DNA from: Escherichia coli
GTDB taxonomy: Bacteria > Pseudomonadota > Gammaproteobacteria > Enterobacterales > Enterobacteriaceae
Assembly (NCBI RefSeq): GCF_050920415.1
Contig: NZ_CP169309.1
Direction: 5' to 3' (one strand)
DNA length: 64,000 nucleotides
A program made the position numbers and the translations under genes. How positions within the stretch are numbered: position 1 is the first letter of the stretch; every line of letters starts with the position of its first letter. The notes under the pieces are model-generated. The model had not been told where the DNA came from. It worked only from the letters and a program-made list of their open reading frames with translations, and ran no database searches. This document shows positions 5,295 through 61,272 of this stretch, piece after piece.

Positions 5295-6227
5295 ATGGCT
5301 AACCTTTTGAATAAATTCATTATGACGAGAATACTCGCTGCGATAACCCTTTTGCTGAGTATCGTATTGACCATTTTGGTCACTATTTTTTGCTCCGTCC
5401 CGATCATCATTGCCGGGATTGTAAAACTATTGCTACCTGTGCCAGTCATTTGGCGAAAGGTTTCGCGTTTTTGTGATTTTATGATGTATTGCTGGTGTGA
5501 AAGTCTGGCGGTATTACTGCATCTGAACCCACACCTGCAATGGGAAGTTCACGGGCTGGAAGGGTTAAGTAAGAAGAACTGGTATCTGCTTATTTGTAAC
5601 CACCGTAGTTGGGCAGATATTGTCGTACTGTGCGTGCTGTTTCGTAAGCACATTCCGATGAATAAATATTTCCTCAAGCAGCAGCTTGCCTGGGTACCAT
5701 TTCTTGGCCTGGCATGCTGGGCGCTGGATATGCCGTTTATGAAGCGTTATTCCCGCGCTTATTTATTACGTCATCCGGAACGACGTGGTAAAGATGTTGA
5801 AACCACCCGGCGTTCTTGTGAAAAGTTTCGCCTGCACCCCACCACCATTGTCAATTTCGTTGAAGGCTCCCGTTTCACGCAAGAAAAACATCAGCAAACC
5901 CACTCCACTTTTCAAAACTTGTTGCCACCAAAGGCAGCAGGCATTGCGATGGCGCTAAATGTACTGGGTAAACAATTCGATAAACTGCTTAATGTTACGC
6001 TGTGTTATCCGGACAATAACCGTCAGCCGTTCTTCGATATGTTAAGCGGTAAACTGACGCGAATTGTCGTACATGTGGATTTACAGCCTATTGCCGATGA
6101 TTTACATGGCGACTACATCAATGACAAAAGCTTTAAGCGCCATTTTCAGCAATGGCTGAACTCACTGTGGCAGGAAAAAGACCGACTTCTGACGTCGTTG
6201 ATGTCATCACAGCGTCAGAATAAGTAA
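5295..6227 (+). CDS. yihG: Putative acyltransferase YihG (PlsC family), start at internal MANLL Met
   Basis: N-terminal TM segment, NHRSWADI acyltransferase motif; conserved position next to polA. Confidence 0.8.
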
Positions 6228-11305: not shown

Positions 11306-14208
<2,903 letters not shown>

Positions 14209-14391
14209 TCACAACCCGAAGATGTTTCTTTCGATTCATCATCGTGTTGCGAAAATTTGAGAGACTCACGAACAACTTTCGTTGTTCAGTGTTTCAATTT
14301 TCAGCTTGATCCAGATTTTTAAAGAGCAAAACTTCGCAGTGAACCTTTGCAGGTACACTCTGAAGTATTTTTTATTTAATCACTACAGAGA

Positions 14392-35567: not shown

Positions 35568-35782
35568 AACGCCTCCAGCCTCATTACTTACCCGCACAAA
35601 ATAGAATTGTGCTGTACAAACGTCCAGTTTGAAAGAAGTTTCCTGCGAGGCGCTACGCAAAACGATCCTTAATTTTTATTATTTTATCCCACAATATGAG
35701 ACGTAGTTTATATTGTGGGATATATCACCTTTTCCCCACGTCATTATGTGGAACACTTCAGCAATATCATCAGGAGAAACGT

Positions 35783-36550
35783 ATGGCAGATACCTCTTCA
35801 ACCACCGCTGGCGCACAAACGTTATTACGCGGGCTGGCGGTTCTTAATGCTGTTTATAACGGCTGCCATGACCTGAAAAGTATCGGCGAGTTCACCGGCA
35901 CGACCCGGAGCACAACCCATCGTTTAGTCACCGTTCTGGTGGAACAACGCTACCTGCGCCACGTCCCAACGCAGGGCTACCAACTGGGCGCCAAACTGAT
36001 CGAATTCGGTGCCAGAGCGCTGGAAAGCACCTCGCTGTACGAAGTTGCGCTGCCCGTTTTGCAACGCCTTGCCCGTTACACCCTGGACACCGTGCATCTG
36101 GGGATCGTTGAAGGCGACGAAGTGCTGTATCTGGAGAAGATCAACAGCCAGCGCGGGCTGGAAATGCGCTCACGCCCAGGCCATCGCATGCCACTGGCAA
36201 TCACCGGCATCGGCAAGGCATTGATCCTCAACCGAACAGAAGAAGAGTGGCGCACGCTGTTTAAGACCTGTGGTGATGAAACAAAACTGGGCGCATTTAT
36301 TCAGAACATGCGTCGTTATGCCGCCAGTGGTTTTGCTTTTGATCTGGAAGAGAACGAGCCGACTATCCGTTGCGTTGCAGCGCCGGTTTACAACGCCCGG
36401 GATGAAATTGTGGCGGCTATTTCTGTCGCCAGTACCACTACGTATATGTCACTGGCGCGTCTGGAAGAACTGGCACCTTACGTCAAATCCTGTGCAGAAG
36501 AGATATCCGCTGAACTGGGCTGGGGTAAGCACGTTCACAAAAATAAATAA
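35783..36550 (+). CDS. IclR-family transcriptional regulator (start at MADTSS after an AGGAG RBS)
   Basis: N-terminal HTH (LLRGLAVLNAV...) followed by an IclR-type effector domain; first gene of an accessory cluster. Confidence 0.7.
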   Translation: MADTSSTTAGAQTLLRGLAVLNAVYNGCHDLKSIGEFTGTTRSTTHRLVTVLVEQRYLRHVPTQGYQLGAKLIEFGARALESTSLYEVALPVLQRLARYTLDTVHLGIVEGDEVLYLEKINSQRGLEMRSRPGHRMPLAITGIGKALILNRTEEEWRTLFKTCGDETKLGAFIQNMRRYAASGFAFDLEENEPTIRCVAAPVYNARDEIVAAISVASTTTYMSLARLEELAPYVKSCAEEISAELGWGKHVHKNK

Positions 36551-36573
36551 ACCATGACTAAAGGAAACGGCTA

Positions 36574-37578
36574 ATGTCGGGAAACACCTCATTTATTGCC
36601 CTGGACTGGGGAACGTCATCGCTTCGGGCATGGCGTTTTGGCGACTCACCCAATCCACAAGAAAAACGTGAATTCCCGTGGGGGATCATGAAATTACCCT
36701 CCCAGGCAGCAACACGTGAGGACGCTTTCCACGATACGTTTTTACGTGTCTGCGGCGACTGGCTGGCACAATCCCCATGCCCGATTCTGGCTTGCGGCAT
36801 GATCGGCAGTGCGCAAGGGTGGCAACCCGCAGCTTATTTACCTTGCCCGGTCACTCTCGAGGGTCTGGCAAAGCAGTTGACGCCTGTTATCTACCAGCAG
36901 CAGACAATGCTGCACATCATTCCCGGCGTGATTAAAGAAGGTGAAATGCCCGAAGTGATGCGTGGCGAAGAGACACAAATCTTCGGTGCTATCTCGATGG
37001 AACCGGCCCTGCAAAACGCGCTCCGCCAGGGTATGCCTGTGCTGATTGGCTTACCTGGCACACATGCGAAATGGGCGGTAGTTGAAAACAACACCATTAC
37101 CGATTTTCGAACCTTTATGACAGGCGAGTTATTTGATGTTTTATCCCGCCATTCGATTCTCGGTGCCACCATGCGTTCGGGAGATGAACCGCACTGGGAT
37201 GCCTTCGCCCACGGGCTGACAGCGGCACAAGAGCATCATCAGACCGGATTATTATCGACGCTGTTTTCGACCCGTTCGCGCCTGCTGACCAGTAATCTTA
37301 CGCCGTCCTCACAGGGGGATTACCTTTCAGGATTACTGATAGGCCATGAATTATGCGGTCTGGCATCCAGTTTGCTACGTGATTTACCCGCCACAACACC
37401 GATCGCCTTAATCGGTAGCGCCACTCTGAACAGCCGCTATTCACAAGCATTCAGCCACGTTTTTCCCGACAGACAGCTACACGCCATTCCTAATGCCACT
37501 GAACAGGGGTTATGGCGAATCGCCCACGCTGCCGGGCTACTCTCCACCAACGCCAGGGAATGTACTCATGCCATTTAA
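36574..37578 (+). CDS. 2-dehydro-3-deoxygalactonokinase-like sugar-acid kinase (DgoK family)
   Basis: Motifs IALDWGTSSLRAW, VMRGEETQIFGA, PGTHAKW, DFRTFMTGELF and LSGLLIG parallel E. coli DgoK. Confidence 0.7.
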   Translation: MSGNTSFIALDWGTSSLRAWRFGDSPNPQEKREFPWGIMKLPSQAATREDAFHDTFLRVCGDWLAQSPCPILACGMIGSAQGWQPAAYLPCPVTLEGLAKQLTPVIYQQQTMLHIIPGVIKEGEMPEVMRGEETQIFGAISMEPALQNALRQGMPVLIGLPGTHAKWAVVENNTITDFRTFMTGELFDVLSRHSILGATMRSGDEPHWDAFAHGLTAAQEHHQTGLLSTLFSTRSRLLTSNLTPSSQGDYLSGLLIGHELCGLASSLLRDLPATTPIALIGSATLNSRYSQAFSHVFPDRQLHAIPNATEQGLWRIAHAAGLLSTNARECTHAI

Positions 37579-38197
37579 TACGCTTTTGCAAAAAACCGGG
37601 TTAGTCGCCATTTTACGCGGCGTGAAACCGGATGAGATTGTCGCCATCGGTGAAAAGCTGTATGCCTCTGGATTTCGCCTGATTGAGATTCCCATGAACT
37701 CGCCGGAGCCGTTGCAAAGTATCAGTTTACTGCGCGACGCCCTGCCTAAGGACTGCCTGGTCGGAGCCGGAACTGTGCTTTCGGTGGAGCACGTCGTCGC
37801 GGTTAAAGAGGCTGGAGGCCAGATTATCGTGATGCCGCATTGCGATACTGCGGTGATCCGTCGTGCCCGTGCGCTGGGTATGTATTGTGCGCCTGGCGTC
37901 GCTACGCCCACCGAAGCTTTTGCTGCCATTGAGCATGGTGCTAATGCCATCAAGCTGTTCCCGGCTGAACAAATTACGCCTGAAGTCACCAAAGCCTGGC
38001 GTGCGGTTATTCCACAATCCGTTCCGATGTTACCGGTTGGCGGTATCACTCCGGAAACCATGGCGCGTTATCTGAGCCACGGTGCAAACGGCTTTGGTCT
38101 CGGTTCTGCGCTTTATCGCCCTGGCATGACGCCAGAGCAGGTCTATAAAAATGCAGTACTGTTTATGAACGCATGGACCAATTTAAACAACAACTAA
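37568..38197 (+). CDS. 2-dehydro-3-deoxy-6-phosphogalactonate aldolase-like (DgoA/Eda family; start at MPFNTLLQ)
   Basis: AILRGVKPDEIV..IEIPMNSPEP motifs of KDPGal/KDPG aldolases; ATG overlaps the kinase stop. Confidence 0.7.
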   Translation: MPFNTLLQKTGLVAILRGVKPDEIVAIGEKLYASGFRLIEIPMNSPEPLQSISLLRDALPKDCLVGAGTVLSVEHVVAVKEAGGQIIVMPHCDTAVIRRARALGMYCAPGVATPTEAFAAIEHGANAIKLFPAEQITPEVTKAWRAVIPQSVPMLPVGGITPETMARYLSHGANGFGLGSALYRPGMTPEQVYKNAVLFMNAWTNLNNN

Positions 38198-38221
38198 CTG
38201 ATAAATAAGGATATAAAAACA

Positions 38222-39196
38222 ATGATAAAACATCTTACCTTACCGAAAAAAATGGCTGCAATGGTACTCCTTGCCGGCGCTTCCCTCAGCACTGCGCCTG
38301 TGCAGGCGGCCTCCTACCCAACCAAACAGATCGAGTTAGTCGTACCCTACGCGGCCGGAGGCGGTACGGATCTGGTTGCCCGTGCCTTTGCTGATGCCGC
38401 CAAAAACCATTTGCCCGTCAGCATCGGGGTTATCAATAAACCTGGCGGTGGCGGCGCTATCGGCCTGAGTGAAATCGCCGCTGCCCGCCCTAACGGTTAC
38501 AAAATGGGTTTAGGCACGGTTGAACTGACCACCCTTCCCAGCCTCGGAATGGTGCGTTTTAAAACCAGCGACTTTAAACCCATTGCCCGTCTGAACGCGG
38601 ATCCGGCTGCTATCACCGTCCGTTCTGATGCGCCGTGGAATAGCTATGAAGAATTTATGACTTACGCCAAAGCGAATCCCGGAAAAGTACGCATTGGTAA
38701 CTCAGGCACCGGAGCAATCTGGCATCTGGCGGCAGCTGCACTGGAAGACAAAACGGGCGTGAAGTTTTCTCATGTCCCATATGACGGCGCAGCCCCTGCC
38801 ATTACAGGCCTGTTAGGCGGGCATATTGAAGCGGTTTCCGTAAGCCCAGGTGAAGTTATCAATCATGTGAAAGGCGGCAAGCTGAAGACACTGGTAGTGA
38901 TGGCGGATGAACATATGAAAACCATGCCTGACGTACCGACGTTAAAAGAGAAAGGCGTTGATCTCTCCATCGGCACCTGGCGCGGTCTGATCGTGTCGCA
39001 AAAAACGCCGCAGGATGTGGTTGATGTTCTGGCTAAGGCCGCAAAAGAGACGGCTGAAGAGCCTGCATTCCAGGATGCTCTGCAAAAGTTGAATCTCAAC
39101 TATGCATGGCTTGATGGTGCCAGCTTCCAGACCCAAATCAACGAACAGGAAAAGTACTTTGACGAGTTACTAACTCGGCTGGGCTTGAAAAAATAA
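38222..39196 (+). CDS. tctC: Tripartite tricarboxylate transporter substrate-binding protein (TctC/Bug family)
   Basis: 324 aa with signal peptide; Bug-family periplasmic binding protein features. Confidence 0.7.
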   Translation: MIKHLTLPKKMAAMVLLAGASLSTAPVQAASYPTKQIELVVPYAAGGGTDLVARAFADAAKNHLPVSIGVINKPGGGGAIGLSEIAAARPNGYKMGLGTVELTTLPSLGMVRFKTSDFKPIARLNADPAAITVRSDAPWNSYEEFMTYAKANPGKVRIGNSGTGAIWHLAAAALEDKTGVKFSHVPYDGAAPAITGLLGGHIEAVSVSPGEVINHVKGGKLKTLVVMADEHMKTMPDVPTLKEKGVDLSIGTWRGLIVSQKTPQDVVDVLAKAAKETAEEPAFQDALQKLNLNYAWLDGASFQTQINEQEKYFDELLTRLGLKK

Positions 39197-39212
39197 TCCC
39201 GAGGTACGGTCG

Positions 39213-39719
39213 ATGAACACAAAACAGTCTGTTGCTCAACTCGCCGTACCGCACCGCAAGCGCCTTTCATCCACTGTGGTGGTGGCGCTGTTACTTTGTG
39301 TGGTTGCTGGCGCGGTGATAATTAATGCCGCTGATTTTCCAGCAACTGCCATTGAAACGGATCCCGGTGCAAGTGCCTTCCCTACTTTCTATGCCTGCGC
39401 TCTGATTGTGCTCGCTGTCTTACTGGTGATACGCGATCTTTTGCTGGCAAAACCAGTCCCTTGCGCCAACGCACAGGAAAAACCGGCATTAAGGAAAACG
39501 GCAACAGGAATTGCGGCAACCGCGTTTTATATTGTGGCGATGAGCTACTGCGGTTATCTCATTACTACTCCTGTTTTCCTCATCGTCATTATGACGTTGA
39601 TGGGCTACAGGCGATGGGTACTCACACCGGGTATTGCGCTGCTGTTAACGGCAATCCTCTGGTTGCTGTTTGTCGAAGCGTTACAGGTGCCATTGCCTGT
39701 CGGCACATTTTTCGAATAA
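39213..39719 (+). CDS. tctB: Tripartite tricarboxylate transporter small membrane subunit (TctB-like)
   Basis: 168 aa, four predicted TM helices, located between tctC and tctA. Confidence 0.55.
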   Translation: MNTKQSVAQLAVPHRKRLSSTVVVALLLCVVAGAVIINAADFPATAIETDPGASAFPTFYACALIVLAVLLVIRDLLLAKPVPCANAQEKPALRKTATGIAATAFYIVAMSYCGYLITTPVFLIVIMTLMGYRRWVLTPGIALLLTAILWLLFVEALQVPLPVGTFFE

Positions 39720-39731
39720 CAGGGGCCTGCA

Positions 39732-41222
39732 ATGTTTGAAAGTGAACTTTTAACTCAGGGGTTTTCGACATTACTCAGTAATCCTCAGGCGCTGCTGTTT
39801 GCCACGTTTGGAGTGATGCTGGGTATTATGATTGGCGCTCTGCCTGGCCTGACAGCGACCATGGGTGTGGCGATTTTGCTGCCTTTCACCTACGGCATGG
39901 AGCCTGTTTCTGGCTTATTGATGATTTGCGGTGTCTTTTTTGGTGGTGTGTATGGTGGTTCTATCACCGCAATTTTGCTCAAAATTCCCGGTACACCTGC
40001 CGCCGCTGCCACCGCCATTGACGGATATGAGCTGACGAAGCAGGGAAAAGCCGGGCTGGCGTTAAGTGCCGCCACGTTCTCTTCTTTTAGCGGTGGAACG
40101 CTCAGCATTATCGTATTGATGTTTCTCTCTCCGGTACTTGCCAGTTGGGCGTTGAAATTTAGTGCCTCGGAGTCCTTCGCCCTGGCAACCTTCGGGCTAA
40201 GTATTATTGCCAGTATTTCCGGTGAGTCACTGATTAAAGGGCTGATTGCCGGGGTTGGCGGATTGCTGATCGCAACGATAGGCCTTGATCCAATGGGCGG
40301 TTTTCCACGCTTTACAGGTGGATTTGTGGAGCTGATGAATGTGCCATTTATCCCGGTGATGATTGGTCTGTTTGCTGCTTCAGAAGCATTCCGCTCTATG
40401 GAGCAAAACCAGCAAATTCGTCAGGGGGCGAAGGTGGCTATCGGCAGTCTGTTACTGCCCTGGCAAACACTACGCCGCATCGCATTAACCATTTTGCGCT
40501 CATCAGGATTAGGGGTTTTTATCGGCATGATCCCCGGTGCGGGGGCAGATATTGCAGCTTTTGTTGCCTATAACGAAACTCGTCGTTTCAGTAAGACGCC
40601 TGAAAACTTTGGTAAGGGTGAGATTAAGGCGGTGGCCTCCTGTGAGGCAGGCGCGAATGGCTGCACCGGTGGCGCATTGTTACCTATGCTGACGTTGGGG
40701 ATCCCAGGCGATGCGGTAACTGCCATCATGCTGGGCGCGTTAACGTTACAAGGGATGCAGCCAGGCCCACTGATGTTTACCGACCACGGCGATATGGTTT
40801 ATACGCTGTTTGTCGGCATGATCTTTTGTTACTTCATGCTGCTAGTTCTTGGACTGCTCTCTTTGAAAGTCATCGGTAACGTGGTGAAGATCCCCGGCAA
40901 TATTCTCACGCCGATGATCCTCGCGCTTTGTGTTGTTGGGACTTATGCGCTGAACAACAGCCTGTTTGATGTTGGCATTATGCTGATTGCAGGCGTGGTG
41001 GGCTATTTCATGCAAAAAGGGGGGTATCCGGCGTCACCCGTAGTGCTGGCATTGATTATGGGGCCAATGGCGGAAAGTAATTTTCGCCGTGCGCTGTCGC
41101 TTTCAGGGGGGTCACTCGACTTCCTGTATACCCGACCGATAACCCTGGCATTGCTGACTCTGGCAGCCTTTACGCTACTGACGCCAATAATACGCAAAAT
41201 TATGCGCTTACGGCGTCAGTAA
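39732..41222 (+). CDS. tctA: Tripartite tricarboxylate transporter large permease (TctA family)
   Basis: 496 aa polytopic membrane protein with glycine-rich TctA-like repeats. Confidence 0.75.
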   Translation: MFESELLTQGFSTLLSNPQALLFATFGVMLGIMIGALPGLTATMGVAILLPFTYGMEPVSGLLMICGVFFGGVYGGSITAILLKIPGTPAAAATAIDGYELTKQGKAGLALSAATFSSFSGGTLSIIVLMFLSPVLASWALKFSASESFALATFGLSIIASISGESLIKGLIAGVGGLLIATIGLDPMGGFPRFTGGFVELMNVPFIPVMIGLFAASEAFRSMEQNQQIRQGAKVAIGSLLLPWQTLRRIALTILRSSGLGVFIGMIPGAGADIAAFVAYNETRRFSKTPENFGKGEIKAVASCEAGANGCTGGALLPMLTLGIPGDAVTAIMLGALTLQGMQPGPLMFTDHGDMVYTLFVGMIFCYFMLLVLGLLSLKVIGNVVKIPGNILTPMILALCVVGTYALNNSLFDVGIMLIAGVVGYFMQKGGYPASPVVLALIMGPMAESNFRRALSLSGGSLDFLYTRPITLALLTLAAFTLLTPIIRKIMRLRRQ

Positions 41223-41276
41223 TTGATATCGCTCCCCGACGTTGGGGAGTATGAGACTGATGACAAACGCTAAATT

Positions 41277-41376
41277 GCCTGATGCGCTGCGCTTATCAGG
41301 CCTACCACAGAAATGCAATATATTGAATTTGCATGCTTTTGTAGGCCGGATAAGGCGATCACGCCGCATCCGGCAT
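41277..41376. repeat. RIP-type BIME: two inverted REP units flanking an AT-rich putative IHF-site spacer
   Basis: gcctgatgcgctgcgcttatcaggcctac ... tgcaatatattgaatttgcatg ... taggccggataaggcgatcacgccgcatccggca. Confidence 0.65.
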
Positions 41377-41407
41377 GAACAAAGCACACGTTAACAACAA
41401 TCGGAAT

Positions 41408-41440
41408 GCTCCCCGACGTTGGGGAGCGTTTTTTTATTTC
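41408..41440 (+). terminator. Hairpin plus T-run overlapping the udp 3' end; second copy of a duplicated 19 bp palindrome
   Basis: gctccccgacgttggggag followed by cgtttttttatttc; the identical hairpin also occurs at 41231-41249 just after tctA. Confidence 0.5.
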
Positions 41441-42198
41441 AGCAGACGACGCGCCGCTTCCACCACGATTTTCACCGCATGGCTTTCGGTTTGTTTCATC
41501 GTCTCAGCATTCGGGATCTCTTGCTGGGTACGATTGACGATAACGCCCGCCACCATACCCGCACGCAGGCCCTGGCTTGCACACATGGTCAGCAGGGTTG
41601 CAGATTCCATTTCATAGTTCATTACGCCCATCGCCTGCCACTCTTCCATAGAACCTTTAAAGTGACGGACTACACGACCAGAGTAAGTATCGTAACGTTC
41701 CTGACCTGGGTAGAAGGTATCAGAAGAAGCCGTCACACCAACGTGAGTGGTGGCACCAATTGACTTCGCCGCTTCAACCAGCGCGGTCGTACATTCGAAA
41801 TCTGCGACAGCCGGGAACTCCAGCGGAGCGAAGTGCAGGCTCGCGCCATCCAGACGAACAGACGCCGTGGTCACCAGCACATCACCCACATTAATATGCG
41901 GCTGGATAGCGCCCGTTGTACCGATACGCAGGAAGGTGCGAATGCCCAGCTGTGCCAGCTCTTCAACCGCAATAGAGGTAGACGGGCCGCCGATACCGGT
42001 AGAGCAGACGATAACAGGTTTACCATCCAGCTCTGCACGCCAGGTGGTGAATTCGCGGTGAGATGCCAGCTTAACCGGCTTATCCATCAGCGCGGCGATC
42101 TTTTCCACACGATCCGGGTCGCCAGGGACGATGGCAAGCGTAGCCCCTTGTAAATCGTTTTTAGTGAGGCCGAGATGAAAAACATCATACTTGGACAT
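41434..42198 (-). CDS. udp: Uridine phosphorylase (start at [10 protein letters not shown])
   Basis: About 254 aa PNP/UDP phosphorylase closely matching E. coli Udp. Confidence 0.95.
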
Positions 42199-43272: not shown

Positions 43273-43663
43273 TTTCCTCTTAGTCTATATTTGAGATGGT
43301 GAGTGAACGAATGCGTTTTGCTGCCATCTCTGTCCCCCAAAAAATAATCAGTATGAATTGATTGGAGAGCACGACTCCGCTATTTGACCTTAAGAAAGTC
43401 GGCAAGTCATAGTCATAAATGAGTCTCTTCACTGGCAGACACCTTAAAGATTTACCATCAACTCCCATTCTCAAACAAACATTAATTATTATCAACACAT
43501 TCACATTAATTATAAATTATCTCAGACCTTCCTGATAAAAAGATATTAAAGTGAAACATTTTGTTTTTCACATTTTAGTTCATCCCTATTAGGCGTAAAT
43601 AAAGGTAAAAAATAACAATACTATTTTTCTTTCACAAAAGAATTAACAAAAGGTTTTTCAAGG

Positions 43664-44062
43664 ATGAGTGATATTATTTACCTGACCATAACCGGAGAAC
43701 AACACGGATGTATTTCCTCTCGTTGTGGAACGAGCACATCAATAGGTAATCGCTGGCAGATTGGTCATGAAGATGAAATCTTCGCGTTCTCGCTCTCTAA
43801 TAGTATTACGAATACAGGAAAAGGGTCACATTTGCATGGCCTTAGTTTCTGTAAGTTGATTGACAAAAGCTCCCCGTTACTTATTAACGCTATTAACAAT
43901 AACGAGCAGTTGTTCATGGAGTTTGACTTCTATCGGATCAATAGATTTGGTCGATGGGAGAAATATTACAACATTCAACTCCGCGGCGCGCTCTTATCAG
44001 CAATCAATCACCTGTTTACGGAGAACAATCTGGATACAGAAACCATCACTGTCAGTTATTAA
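43664..44062 (+). CDS. Hcp-like type VI secretion tube protein domain (132 aa, shorter than typical Hcp)
   Basis: IYLTITGEQHGCISSRCGTSTSIGNRWQIGHEDEIFAF, IDKSSPLLINAI, FYRINRFG and ETITVSY follow the Hcp1-family pattern; RBS before the ATG; AT-rich context. Confidence 0.6.
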   Translation: MSDIIYLTITGEQHGCISSRCGTSTSIGNRWQIGHEDEIFAFSLSNSITNTGKGSHLHGLSFCKLIDKSSPLLINAINNNEQLFMEFDFYRINRFGRWEKYYNIQLRGALLSAINHLFTENNLDTETITVSY

Positions 44063-44107
44063 TATATACTCTCCAGGCATCTGATTGCTAATACTGAATT
44101 TAGTTAT

Positions 44108-44812
44108 TTGGCATTTCCCGATAACTACAATCGTCTGTTTATACCACGGCCAAAAACTAAAGATGATAATGGCCTCAAAACACTCAATAGTAAAGCTGTT
44201 GGCAGACTGCTTGCTGCTGGCGGCATATACAATGGGAATATCGAAGGATTCAGGGAAACAGCAAACAAGTTGGGGGGAGATGCACCTGCTGGTTACGATC
44301 AAGTTATGGATAACAAAGGGTTACTCATCGCTGGTGCTTCAATAGTTGCTGGAGCAGTTCTGGGGAGAATGAGACTCCCTGATTTGGAATCACTTGAGCA
44401 TTTCGGAGCCAGAGGAGCAGTATCAGGAAGACCATTTAATCCCGACCTTGCCGGTGGTCCAATAGAAAATCTGACGACAGATGGCGTAACAATCAACAGG
44501 GAAGGTATCGCTATTGTTGAAAAACACATAGCCAGATTTGGTCATGACCCTGTAAATGAAGTGATGATCAATAGACTGAAAGACATTGAGAAAGGAAAAA
44601 TCCCCCCAGAACAAGTAGATCTTAACTTCTATACTCATGAATGTCGGGAATATCAGCGTTACTGTAATCTTGGTTGGGAAACAGGACAACCTGATGGTGA
44701 CGCAGGCTATGCACTCTGGAATCATACGCATACTGCTACTCTAGAAGATTATAAACTTAAGGGAGAACTTAATGACTTATACCACCAGGATGCACTTGAC
44801 TATGATAACTGA
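44108..44812 (+). CDS. Putative toxin/effector domain protein of unknown class
   Basis: 234 codon ORF in the same frame as the Hcp-like ORF, open from the TAA at 44060-44062; no ATG or clear RBS near its 5' end; glycine-zipper-like GLLIAGASIVAGAVLG segment. Confidence 0.4.
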   Translation: MAFPDNYNRLFIPRPKTKDDNGLKTLNSKAVGRLLAAGGIYNGNIEGFRETANKLGGDAPAGYDQVMDNKGLLIAGASIVAGAVLGRMRLPDLESLEHFGARGAVSGRPFNPDLAGGPIENLTTDGVTINREGIAIVEKHIARFGHDPVNEVMINRLKDIEKGKIPPEQVDLNFYTHECREYQRYCNLGWETGQPDGDAGYALWNHTHTATLEDYKLKGELNDLYHQDALDYDN

Positions 44813-45047
44813 AACTGAAATTAACGTACTGAAAGTTATGGCTGAGAAAGATATAAACTGGAACTGGATGAATCTCGATCGCACACTATCTATAAGGCAA
44901 ATTCCAGGATTCGGTAATGTTGTTAACATTGTTAACAAATTAGCTAACGAGGGTTTGGTTATTATTGAGGATAGCGGACATAAGTCTATGCCTCACTACC
45001 ACGTTACTGAAAAGGGATACAATCTCGTGAAAAGTGAGAATAAATAA
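44802..45047 (+). CDS. Small winged-helix-like protein, candidate immunity protein or regulator
   Basis: ATG at 44802 overlaps the upstream stop (ATGATAACTGA); the ~81 aa product has an HTH-like LSIRQIPGFGNVVNIVNKLANEGLV segment. Confidence 0.4.
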   Translation: MITETEINVLKVMAEKDINWNWMNLDRTLSIRQIPGFGNVVNIVNKLANEGLVIIEDSGHKSMPHYHVTEKGYNLVKSENK

Positions 45048-45195
45048 CGTAGCGTTGATTACTGAACAAATCGCTCAGGATTATATTTTGCGAAAAAAAT
45101 GATTCGGTTATTTCTGTGTCTGAACGGCCGCAGATAGCAAAATGGCTTCCGGTGATGGAAGCCATCAGATTATTGGCAAAGTGCGTGTTGTTCAT

Positions 45196-45226
45196 GCCGG
45201 ATGCGGCGTGAACGCCTTATCTGGCC
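45196..45226. repeat. REP element
   Basis: gccggatgcggcgtgaacgccttatctggcc. Confidence 0.7.
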
Positions 45227-45333
45227 AACTAAATCTTGAAAATTCAATAAATTGAATAAATTATGTAGGCCTGGTATCAGGCAGTTTCGCCTCTTTCATC
45301 GTACTGCAATTTACAGTGACTCGTTAATACTCA

Positions 45334-47595
45334 TCATCCCCGACGCAAATTCTGCGCCGCCTGCACCATGTTCGCCAGTGCCGCGCGGGTTTCTGGCCAG
45401 CCGCGCGTTTTCAGGCCACAGTCCGGGTTGACCCACAGACGCTCTGCCGGAATGCGTTGTGCCGCTTTCTTCAGCAGGGACTCAATCCATTCCACGCTCG
45501 GTACGTTTGGCGAGTGAATGTCATAGACGCCAGGACCGATTTCATTCGGATAATCAAACTCTTCAAACGACTCCAGCAACTCCATGTCGGAACGCGAGGT
45601 TTCGATTGTGATGACGTCAGCATCCAGCGCCGCAATCGAATCCATGATGTCGTTGAACTCGCAGTAACACATGTGAGTGTGGATTTGCGTGTCATCTTTC
45701 GCTACGGCAGCGTTGATACGGAAAGCCTCCACGCCCCACTGGAGATAGGCATCCCAGTCGCTGCGACGCAGCGGTAAACCTTCGCGTAGCGCCGGTTCAT
45801 CAATCTGGATGATGCCAATTCCAGCGGCTTCCAGATCGGCCACTTCATCACGAAGCGCCAGCGCAATTTGTTTGGCGATGGTTTCACGGCTGACATCTTC
45901 ACGCGGGAACGACCAGCAGAGAATGGTCACCGGGCCAGTCAGCATCCCTTTCACCGGTTTATCAGTCAGAGATTGCGCATACTTCGCCCACTCCACGGTA
46001 ATCGGTGCCGGGCGGCTAACGTCACCAATAACAATCGGTGGCTTCACGCAGCGGGAACCGTAGCTCTGTACCCAACCGTTTTGCGTAAAGACAAAGCCAT
46101 CCAGGTGCTCGCCAAAGTATTCCACCATGTCATTACGCTCGGCCTCACCATGCACCAGCACATCCAGACCCAGACGTTCCTGCTCAACAATGGCCTGCTT
46201 GATATGTTCTGCAATGCCCGTGCGGTAGTTGTTGGCGTCGAGATTACCCTTTTTGAAATCCAGACGCAGGGTACGGATTTCTGTGGTTTGCGGGAAAGAG
46301 CCAATCGTGGTGGTCGGCCAGGCTGGCAGTTTAAAACGCGCACGCTGGGCTTCAGCACGCACTTCATAAACGTTCGCACGCTGGCTGTCCTGGGCTGTGA
46401 TCGCTGCCAGACGTTTTTCTACCGCCGGATTATGGACGCGGGTTGAGTGACGACGCGCCTGAATCGGAGCGCTCCACTCTGCCAGAGCTGCCGTGTCACC
46501 ACTGTTCAACGCATCGCGCAGCAGCGCCAGTTCATGGCATTTTTGCAGGGCGAAGGCAAACCAGCTTTTCACTTCCGCATCAAGACGCGTTTCCACACTC
46601 AGGTCGATAGGGCTGTGCAGCAATGAGCAGGAAGATGCCACCCACAAATCACGTTTGCCGACAATGTCCTTAATTTGCGCATATTTCTCGGTAAGATCGG
46701 CGCGCCAGACGTTACGACCATTGATAAGACCCGCAGACAGCAGCCAGTCAGAAGGCAGACGCTTGTGCAGTTCAGCAACGTCATCTTTACCATGTACGAG
46801 ATCGACATGCAGCCCCTGAACAGGCAGCGCAGTAATGGTGTCGAGGTTTGGCGTTACGCCTTCAAAATAGGTGGTCAGCAGCAGTTTCACCTGGCCCTGG
46901 AGCGCGTCGTAAGCGGGTTTATAGGCGTCCAGCCACGCCTGCGGCAGTTCCAGTACCAGAGCCGGTTCGTCGATCTGTACCCACTCAATGCCGCGTTTTG
47001 CCAGTTCTGCCAACACTTGCTGATAAACCGGCAGAATGTCGTTTAGCAGGCTCAGGCGATCAAACTGTTCACCTTTCACTTTACCCAGCCACAGGTAGGT
47101 AACCGGCCCCAGCAGCACGGGCTTGACCTTGTGGCCCAGCGCCAGCGCCTCGTCCACTTCCTCCAGCAGTTGCGTCCAGGTCAGTTTGAACTGTTGGCCT
47201 TTAACGAACTCCGGCACCATGTAGTGATAGTTGGTGTTAAACCATTTGGTCATTTCCGCTGCCGCCGCAGGTTCACCAGTCGGTGCACGTCCACGACCAA
47301 TACGGAACAGGGTGTCGATATCTACCGAACCATCTTTGTTCTGGTGACGCGCCGGAACGTTACCCAGCAGCAGGCTGGTGGTCAGGACATGATCGTACCA
47401 GGCAAAATCGCCCACCGGCAGCAGGTCGATACCTGCTTGCTTTTGTTGATCCCAGTGACGGGCACGTAATTCACGCCCAACCGCCAGCAGTTCTTCACGC
47501 GTGGAGTTCCCCGCCCAATAACTCTCTTGCGCTTTTTTCAGCTCGCGACGCAGGCCAACGCGAGGGAAACCGAGGGTGTGATTCAATATTGTCAT
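45334..47595 (-). CDS. metE: Cobalamin-independent methionine synthase
   Basis: 753 aa; N-terminus [29 protein letters not shown] matches MetE. Confidence 0.97.
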
Positions 47596-61130: not shown

Positions 61131-61165
61131 AACAACCGTTTTGTGTCACTGAATATGGTGCAGAT

Positions 61166-61269
61166 GCCGGATGCGGCGCAAACGCCTTACCCGGCCTACA
61201 TGACATTGCAATTTATTGAATCTACATGATTTTGTAGGCCGGATAAGGTGCGCAGCACCGCATCCGGCA
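61166..61269. repeat. RIP-type BIME: inverted REP pair with putative IHF-site spacer
   Basis: gccggatgcggcgcaaacgccttacccggcctac ... tgcaatttattgaatctacatg ... taggccggataaggtgcgcagcaccgcatccggca. Confidence 0.65.
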
Positions 61270-61272
61270 ACG

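Follow-up and report, generated by a model that had tools for sequence, protein, structure and literature searches.

MITEs are short non-coding elements that have terminal inverted repeats and direct repeats at both ends, one copy of which is found in empty sites; the DDE transposase that moves them gives each duplication a short, constant length (2-10 bp). A review has stated that REPs "do not display MITE signatures" (PMC3184786). BIME-1, also named RIP or RIB in E. coli, is defined by its y and z1 REPs and often bears an IHF site in its linker (PMC3333891), and its presence or absence among strains is already on record (PMC1187871, citing Bachellier 1997). The presumed model for the mobility of REPs and BIMEs, IS200/IS605-type Y1 transposition, involves no target duplications (PMC3333891, PMC2817692), and the dissemination of REPINs has been called "a central, but unresolved issue" (PMC3116915). 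Here we describe a BIME-1 between tctA and udp that is bracketed by two copies of a hairpin. The element belongs to the known BIME-1/RIP kind. In the accessible literature, a scope outside which the key papers of the 1990s fall, we found no description of a flanking hairpin duplication around a BIME, REP or REPIN, and we claim no priority for the general hairpin pattern.

The tctA-udp junction in the window and in other genomes

The window, the whole 64-kb stretch of DNA that was analysed, matches E. coli MFDS1022581 at this locus with 100% identity, and the gene names come from the RefSeq annotation of that strain. The final gene of an iclR-dgoK-dgoA-like-tctCBA cluster, tctA, ends in TAA at 41220-41222, and one BIME-1 unit sits between its stop and that of the convergent udp. 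The features are as follows, with the basis of each in brackets.

35663..41439, + strand: segment missing from K-12-like genomes, made up of the tct/dgo-like cluster, the hairpins and the BIME (comparison with strain N3)
39732..41222, + strand: tctA, tripartite tricarboxylate transporter permease (ORF list; RefSeq annotation of MFDS1022581)
41231..41249, + strand: left hairpin copy, type A (GCTCCCCGACGTTGGGGAG), without a U-run after it (sequence reading)
41250..41407, + strand: complete BIME-1/RIP, 158 bp, a 154-bp core at 41252-41405 with TA and AT spacers (whole-length homology)
41252..41269, + strand: left terminal inverted repeat of BIME-1, TGAGACTGATGACAAACG (kept in other copies)
41277..41305, + strand: y-type REP, inverted orientation, ending in CTAC (alignment of copies; nomenclature of PMC3333891)
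41316..41328, + strand: IHF-site-like sequence CAATATATTGAAT in the long linker (sequence reading)
41341..41375, + strand: z1-type REP, beginning with GTAG (alignment; sub-threshold Rfam match to the REP-derived naRNA4)
41389..41405, + strand: right terminal inverted repeat of BIME-1, CGTTAACAACAATCGGA (alignment of copies)
41408..41427, + strand: right hairpin copy, type A in the window strain (sequence reading and genome comparison)
41429..41435, + strand: T7 run, overlapping the udp stop codon (sequence reading)
41434..42198, - strand: udp, uridine phosphorylase (ORF list; RefSeq annotation of MFDS1022581)

The original prediction, made from the letters of the window, was of two identical 19-base palindromes 177 bp apart on either side of an inverted REP pair, and this layout was borne out. 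The 19 bases match exactly at 41231-41249 and 41408-41426 (177 bp from start to start), the y and z1 REPs lie between them, and a repeat finder returned a single direct-repeat family with a spacing of 177. A search of the window for further copies of hairpin A, or for the variant hairpin B described below, found none; the chance expectation for this sequence in 64 kb, with up to three mismatches allowed, is 0.01. The unit is a near-palindrome with a 7-bp G+C stem and inner G.T and A-T pairs, and the right copy together with C41427 makes a full 20-nt palindrome, followed by G and then by the T7 run. Two details required correction: the left copy, placed directly after the tctA stop, starts 8 nt past it, and the overlap with the udp stop (the complement of 41434-41436), attributed to the palindrome, is made by the T7 run.

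The REP pair was rightly seen as part of a REP/RIP element, the extent of which is larger than was thought and takes in conserved non-REP ends. Both REPs, y and z1 in inverted orientation, align with the REPs of other BIME-1s, the 35-nt linker is conserved among copies, and identity is about 87% over 41251-41408, non-REP ends included, to copies at fdhE-yiiF, agp-yccJ and other loci. The left terminal repeat matches the consensus derived from BIME-1 copies at 18 of 18 positions. The linker sequence is a candidate IHF site, agreeing at 12 of 13 positions with YAANNNNTTGATW, which we take to be the IHF-site consensus. Searched for in E. coli genomes, this BIME-1 has a median of 6 matching places per genome. 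Judged by its sequence, the 158-bp segment is a BIME-1/RIP, an element of the REPIN type with terminal inverted repeats of 17-18 bp. It resembles the BIME-1/RIP/RIB of E. coli in its inverted y and z1 REPs, its conserved long linker with an IHF-like site and its single unit of about 155 bp, and differs in that the tctA-udp copy is not at a K-12 locus. We found no mention of terminal inverted repeats outside the REPs in the accessible BIME-1/RIP literature.

Other sequences of this kind lie in the window. A second inverted REP pair at 61164-61270 has a linker resembling the IHF-site linker, as in BIME-1, is without outer terminal repeats and adjoins a coding region; a degenerate BIME-1 at 45140-45300 (minus strand), downstream of metE, has its right end abutting a terminator hairpin (AATCTGAT followed directly by GGCTTCCatcaccGGAAGCCATTTT). 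An Rfam scan gave sub-threshold matches at 41298-41380 to naRNA4 (CssrE) and ES036 (CssrF), which overlap REP or linker sequence and do not point to an sRNA gene; apart from these REP-derived sRNAs, the scan returned chance matches only.

A survey of 5,426 complete E. coli genomes found three states of the locus. Genomes of the first state, which are K-12-like (for example N3), have no tct cluster, a rmuC-udp spacing of 140 bp and an unrelated udp terminator. Those of the second, about 1,222 genomes, have the cluster and a single hairpin with its T7 run and no BIME; the hairpin loop is GAAG in ST131 and Nissle and GACG in 2014C-3075 and N96. The third state, in which cluster, hairpin, BIME-1 and second hairpin follow one another, was found in 17 of the 5,426. 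The junction measures 173-174 bp in the second state against 351 bp in the filled state, a difference of one repeat period, 177 bp, and the left copy of the window has the same sequence as the lone hairpin of the BIME-less genomes with loop GACG (N96 and 2014C-3075). Because BIME-less genomes that carry the cluster have one hairpin, the duplication belongs to BIME-1 and not to the tct cluster. An origin of the duplication either with the REP/RIP unit or with the whole island had been proposed, and the 177-bp-shorter, single-hairpin junctions uphold the first of these and not the second.

Identity of the two copies is not the typical state. The right copy is of type B (GCTCCCCTAAGCCAGGGAGC) in all nine of the other filled genomes whose sequence was read, and B differs from A at five clustered positions (8, 10, 12, 13 and 14). 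These nine represent every identity class among the sixteen other filled genomes, the remaining seven matching two of the nine in identity and bit score. Of the window and the nine, the window strain alone carries A on both sides; a single record reaches 99% identity. The explanation that we favor, with a probability of roughly 0.7, is that a terminator hairpin common to the convergent tct and udp was duplicated when BIME-1 entered at the hairpin foot, and that the identity of the copies in the window strain is secondary.

The proposal that the palindrome is a terminator hairpin holds for the tct operon, and only the right copy has the U-run. On the + strand, the right copy and the T7 run have the form of an intrinsic terminator and are the only such site predicted for the tct operon, so that in this model the left copy and the BIME would become part of the tct 3' UTR. 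Calculated hairpin energies are -19.3 kcal/mol for the right A copy, -15.2 kcal/mol for B and -13.5 kcal/mol for the left A copy. Read along the udp strand, an A7 run comes before the hairpin, and the tail after it, AUUCCGAUUGUUGUU, is only weakly U-rich. The minimum-energy fold of 41215-41445, an equilibrium prediction, joins the two copies into a stem of about 23 bp around the BIME (-96.8 kcal/mol, z = -8.4); they can pair in this way because the repeat unit is itself palindromic. The five B differences would be expected to interrupt this long stem in strains with an A-BIME-B junction.

Flanking hairpins at other BIME-1 loci

An alignment of seven BIME-1 copies revealed that the agp-yccJ copy is bracketed in the same manner, with CTCCCCCGCGAGAAGCGGGGGAG on the left, the element bounded as TA-TGAGAT...TTTGA-AA, and (G)CCCCCCCGCGTGAAGCGGGGGAG on the right. 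This site is filled in 89 of the 5,426 E. coli genomes (strain HS included; an example is NZ_CP019280.1, 390-594 of the extracted region), 88 of them at 99% identity or more. About 5,300 genomes, K-12 MG1655 among them, are empty, with a single left-type hairpin in a region that is 182 bp shorter, the length of the BIME plus a 23-24-nt hairpin. At agp-yccJ, insertion with duplication is clearly the derived state. The right copy here differs at 2 positions and 1 adjacent base, despite the identity of at least 99% among 88 of the 89 filled genomes. At uspB-pitA, 1,942 genomes are filled and the right copy is without the TAAA of the loop; empty sites are 173 bp shorter and have one hairpin, identical to the left copy. 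Downstream of fbp, a filled metagenome contig (L126) has a perfect 22-nt repeat where E. coli has one hairpin, and a search for a filled and empty pair within E. coli genomes found none. Direct repeats that abut both ends of the element, with one copy in empty sites, are thus found at tctA-udp, agp-yccJ, uspB-pitA and fbp.

To widen the sample, metagenomes were scanned with a BIME-1-specific 21-mer. The 113 usable instances fell into 30 clusters, which came to 28 distinct loci once orthologues had been merged and tctA-udp and agp-yccJ added. At each locus the 72 nt to the left of the y REP were aligned with the 75 nt to the right of the search pattern, and the null was built by setting the left flank of one locus against the right flank of another (756 mismatched pairs; mean score 12.9, 99th percentile 21). 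Scores above the 99th percentile (24-47) were obtained at 12 of the 28 loci, against about 0.3 expected, each with a direct repeat abutting both ends, and two further loci, the A-B form of tctA-udp among them, were weaker. The flanking repeats are 19-30 nt long, specific to the locus and hairpin-forming, and their length tracks the size of the local hairpin; a fixed duplication length is not what was found, and some loci have no duplication. Junctions lie 0-2 nt from the stem foot and involve the same element ends (TGAGAC...ATCTGA) in most loci, and the stems of the target hairpins have nothing in common in sequence beyond G+C richness. A simple stem finder placed a hairpin within 2 nt of the right end in 21 of 28 loci and of the left end in 15 of 28, and a run of at least four T lay to the z1 side at 18 of the 28 loci, compared with 4 of the 28 for the y side; both pairs of counts are descriptive.

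Not every BIME-1 conforms to this arrangement. The fdhE-yiiF copy has no flanking hairpin, and the artJ-rlmC copy has one on the right only, which is not duplicated. In the empty B2 allele of artJ-rlmC, 9 nt (GATTCAGAA) stand in place of T plus the 154-bp BIME-1, and this empty site without duplication indicates that duplication is not obligatory. The allele was seen in strain AR_0077 (118-140 of the extracted region); its 9 nt resemble the BIME end (TCAGA/TCTGA) and could be a candidate excision footprint. At yajD-tsx, 3,804 of 5,426 genomes have a BIME-1-like copy with a query coverage of 80% or more, and in at least one genome (PEC403) the match is confined to the yajD side, possibly another presence/absence polymorphism.

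The right copy is the altered one at all three E. coli loci with empty sites, either by clustered changes in the loop or upper stem or by the loss of 4 nt from the loop; the flanks there are 98-100% identical. A metagenome contig (L129), which on its left apparently has the same coding end as the degenerate BIME-1 downstream of metE, has an intact BIME-1 bracketed by CGGGTGGTAACACCACCCG and CGGGTGGCAACGCCACCCG, a repeat pair that differs by a compensatory pair. The fbp terminator of E. coli (CGCCGGAGCAATCCGGCG, ~410-440 of the extracted region) and the copy in the filled contig L126 (CGCCGGATTGCTCCGGCG, ~11758-11780) are exact reverse complements of each other, and the right and left copies at another locus (L204) are nearly so, with loop GCAA versus TTGC. 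Such hairpin flips suggest strand-switch events at terminator palindromes.

Possible routes of insertion

We propose tentatively, at a little under even odds, that integration of BIME-1 is structure-directed at the foot of G+C-rich terminator hairpins, so that the whole hairpin (19-30 bp) is duplicated, the orientation is fixed relative to the terminator and the downstream copy is mutated. In this scheme the target would be recognized by its structure, a G+C-rich stem-loop, and not by its sequence. The two strands would be cut or joined on opposite sides of the palindrome, giving a stagger as long as the palindrome itself, perhaps by an HUH/Y1 enzyme, for example a REP-associated transposase, that works on each strand at the 3' hairpin foot. 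Such an enzyme would leave a 3'-OH on the target and carry the 5' end of the element, and fill-in or repair synthesis would then duplicate the whole hairpin to give a variable 19-30-bp target duplication. The near-identical TGAGAC/TCAGAT start on each BIME-1 strand makes symmetric joining chemically conceivable, as a speculation. The orientation of the element was found to be fixed relative to the T-run.

With IS200/IS605 (Y1/HUH), BIME-1 shares hairpin-centered recognition, ends at a fixed distance from sub-terminal hairpins and a strand or orientation bias, seen in BIME-1 as the preponderance of T-runs on the z1 side; the IS200/IS605 target, in contrast, is short and sequence-specific and is not duplicated, whereas BIME-1 has a structure-defined duplication. 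The direct repeats and terminal inverted repeats are features shared with MITEs, as is the single repeat copy in empty sites, but the length of the BIME-1 duplication varies with the size of the target hairpin.

A symmetric fill-in would not by itself predict that the right copy should be the altered one at three of three loci. The altered right copies, the compensatory pair and the flips point to error-prone or strand-switching synthesis, or else to selective survival of diverged repeats, which would be favored among survivors because perfect repeats favor deletion. The main rival to the transposase model does without a staggered cut by a transposase: a replication fork stalled at the hairpin would copy BIME-1 from elsewhere, by template switching or in the course of error-prone break repair. 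This is an unlikely account. In its favor, the right-copy changes are clustered between flanks of 98-100% identity, and in the two flip cases the sequence between matching outer ends is reverse-complemented, the mark of a strand switch. However, junctions so close to the stem foot, together with constant element ends, look like defined end-processing and not like switching guided by microhomology, and we keep structure-directed integration as the preferred, tentative model.

History of the tctA-udp junction and meaning of the scar

The junction has a counterpart outside E. coli. In Escherichia whittamii (5501-5690 of its extracted locus), a hairpin A' with loop GAAG and an orthologous BIME-1 occupy the same position; the right hairpin and T-run are absent, and other sequence takes the place of the final 7 bp of the BIME and supplies the TGA that closes udp. 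Filled E. coli junctions are about 95% identical to that of E. whittamii over a 301-bp junction region, and no E. coli genome in the survey was found with the E. whittamii type of arrangement, a BIME without the right hairpin. Since its BIME is at the same position between flanks that are 94% identical, vertical descent fits, and the sequences suggest that the tctA-udp BIME-1 is at least as old as the split of E. coli and E. whittamii, or nearly so. Loop GAAG is common to B2 E. coli and E. whittamii and is likely ancestral. Hairpin B keeps A at loop position 10, as the GAAG hairpins do, and the derived C at this position is found in the left copy of non-B2 strains and in both copies of the window. 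The most economical history would have A'-BIME-A' at insertion, divergence to A-BIME-B, and homogenization of the right copy in the lineage of the window strain.

The perfect identity of the copies in the window strain is thus most likely secondary homogenization, a reading preferred on grounds of parsimony over a pristine duplication. The latter would mean that BIME-1 was inserted recently with an exact 19-bp duplication, and that the A-B genomes either derive from this product by mutation or go back to a separate event. It would account for the 19 of 19 matching bases, has a parallel in the perfect repeats of the fbp contig and finds an "empty" site with the same GACG hairpin in the nearest relative, N96. 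It is nevertheless improbable: the window BIME is base-for-base the same, and at the same position, as that of three A-B genomes (L006-L008) and is orthologous to the E. whittamii copy; B has the ancestral A at loop position 10 where both window copies have the derived C; and the A-B genomes, with a flank divergence of 1-3% among one another, are too widely spread to descend from the window strain given these distances. We also asked of B itself whether it is the reverse complement of A or A', a flip such as occurs at other loci, and it is not.

If homogenization is the correct reading, the right copy could have been converted by the left within the chromosome, or the allele could have recombined with a single-hairpin allele by an exchange whose end fell between BIME and hairpin loop. 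The allele closest to that of the window is found in N96 (3 differences over 1,700 bp to the right and 25 over 2,900 bp to the left), which has a single hairpin and no BIME and is the only single-hairpin genome with non-B2 flanks; N96 may have arisen by deletion from an A-A allele or may represent the recipient background. Perfect repeats would be prone to deletion, and N96 carries just such a single-hairpin, BIME-less allele. Deletions between short repeats are documented in E. coli (PMC5426353), and RecA-independent deletion between short direct repeats would explain the loss of the BIME and one copy in N96 and possibly in the B2 alleles, but it accounts for loss only and not for the origin of two copies. 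If the BIME predates E. coli, the roughly 1,222 single-hairpin genomes would need a deletion crossover within about five shared bases, unless the copies were then identical, and the single-hairpin tctA-udp alleles may represent either the state before insertion or the product of a deletion.

That the two hairpins began as separate terminators of tct and udp, alike by chance or convergence, with the BIME landing between them, is very improbable. In its favor, the two genes converge, tctA and udp are separated by two different hairpins in Klebsiella spallanzanii, and BIMEs are known at the 3' ends of transcription units (PMC3333891). Yet the copies agree at 13-19 of 19-20 bases, exactly one copy is present in BIME-less genomes with a length difference of one repeat period, and the same layout with locus-specific hairpins recurs at a dozen of the sampled loci where a fraction of one would be expected. 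No outgroup was found that has two such hairpins adjacent and no BIME.

Least probable, and in effect ruled out, is duplication of the hairpin by insertion of the whole tct island, through att-like repeats or an island target duplication, since for all that the right copy stands at the edge of a segment missing from K-12-like genomes, both copies are at the udp edge, 177 bp apart, with none at the rmuC edge (~35663) or elsewhere in the 64 kb, the island-bearing genomes of the second state have a single copy, island-less genomes have no copy of this hairpin, and tctA adjoining udp is kept in four other species or genera. Repeats of the att type would put one copy at each island end. The hairpin pair marks an island boundary, as had been suggested, only in the geographical sense that the right copy lies at the edge of a presence/absence segment, not as a sign of island insertion. 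Comparison with the rmuC-udp region of island-less genomes, offered as a guide to the ancestral state, proved uninformative, as there is an unrelated terminator there (AAGGCCGAACGCGTCGGCCTT) and no hairpin copy. In these genomes (strain N3 comparison), about 47 bp with a different udp terminator replace 35663..41439, and udp has 253 aa against 254 aa in cluster-bearing strains, which have an extra C-terminal Lys and a different stop codon.

A TctA search with one genome per species found the cluster in E. whittamii, with tctA adjoining udp, and found tctA convergent with udp in Buttiauxella, Phytobacter and Klebsiella (~5480-5570 of the extracted loci), with one or two unrelated hairpins between the genes and no BIME. 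The E. whittamii flanks reach 94% identity to the window over 5.5 kb and 1.8 kb, an ordinary between-species divergence. This synteny indicates that the cluster is old in its place next to udp, and it seems more likely that it was lost from K-12-like strains than that it was inserted in the window strain. A second variable spot lies beside the locus, between ysgA and metE (window ~43660-46380; 11515-14232 in the identical-strain record), where the RefSeq annotation describes tssD (T6SS tube protein) as broken, an IS2 as frameshifted and an HNH endonuclease gene as truncated; in other strains the spot holds an intact tssD, or a cysteine hydrolase gene and a DUF2877 gene, or nothing.

One consequence is that the hairpin pair no longer counts as evidence of island insertion at tctA-udp. 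For annotation and expression, insertion would leave the upstream gene with a 3' UTR that contains a hairpin and a REP pair, and would shift its true terminator about 175 nt downstream. Beyond this locus, the doubled hairpin has the look of a scar left where a member of a repeat family was inserted. If structure-directed integration is true, REPIN insertion would not be simple "peel and paste" of a single strand as in IS200/IS605, and duplicated hairpins would be a legible scar by which insertion events could be scored across genomes, along with the polarity and age of each. Such a scar would give a concrete target, the foot of a G+C-rich stem-loop, and with it a testable prediction for the REP-associated transposase, and it would allow insertions and losses to be dated and counted in thousands of genomes.
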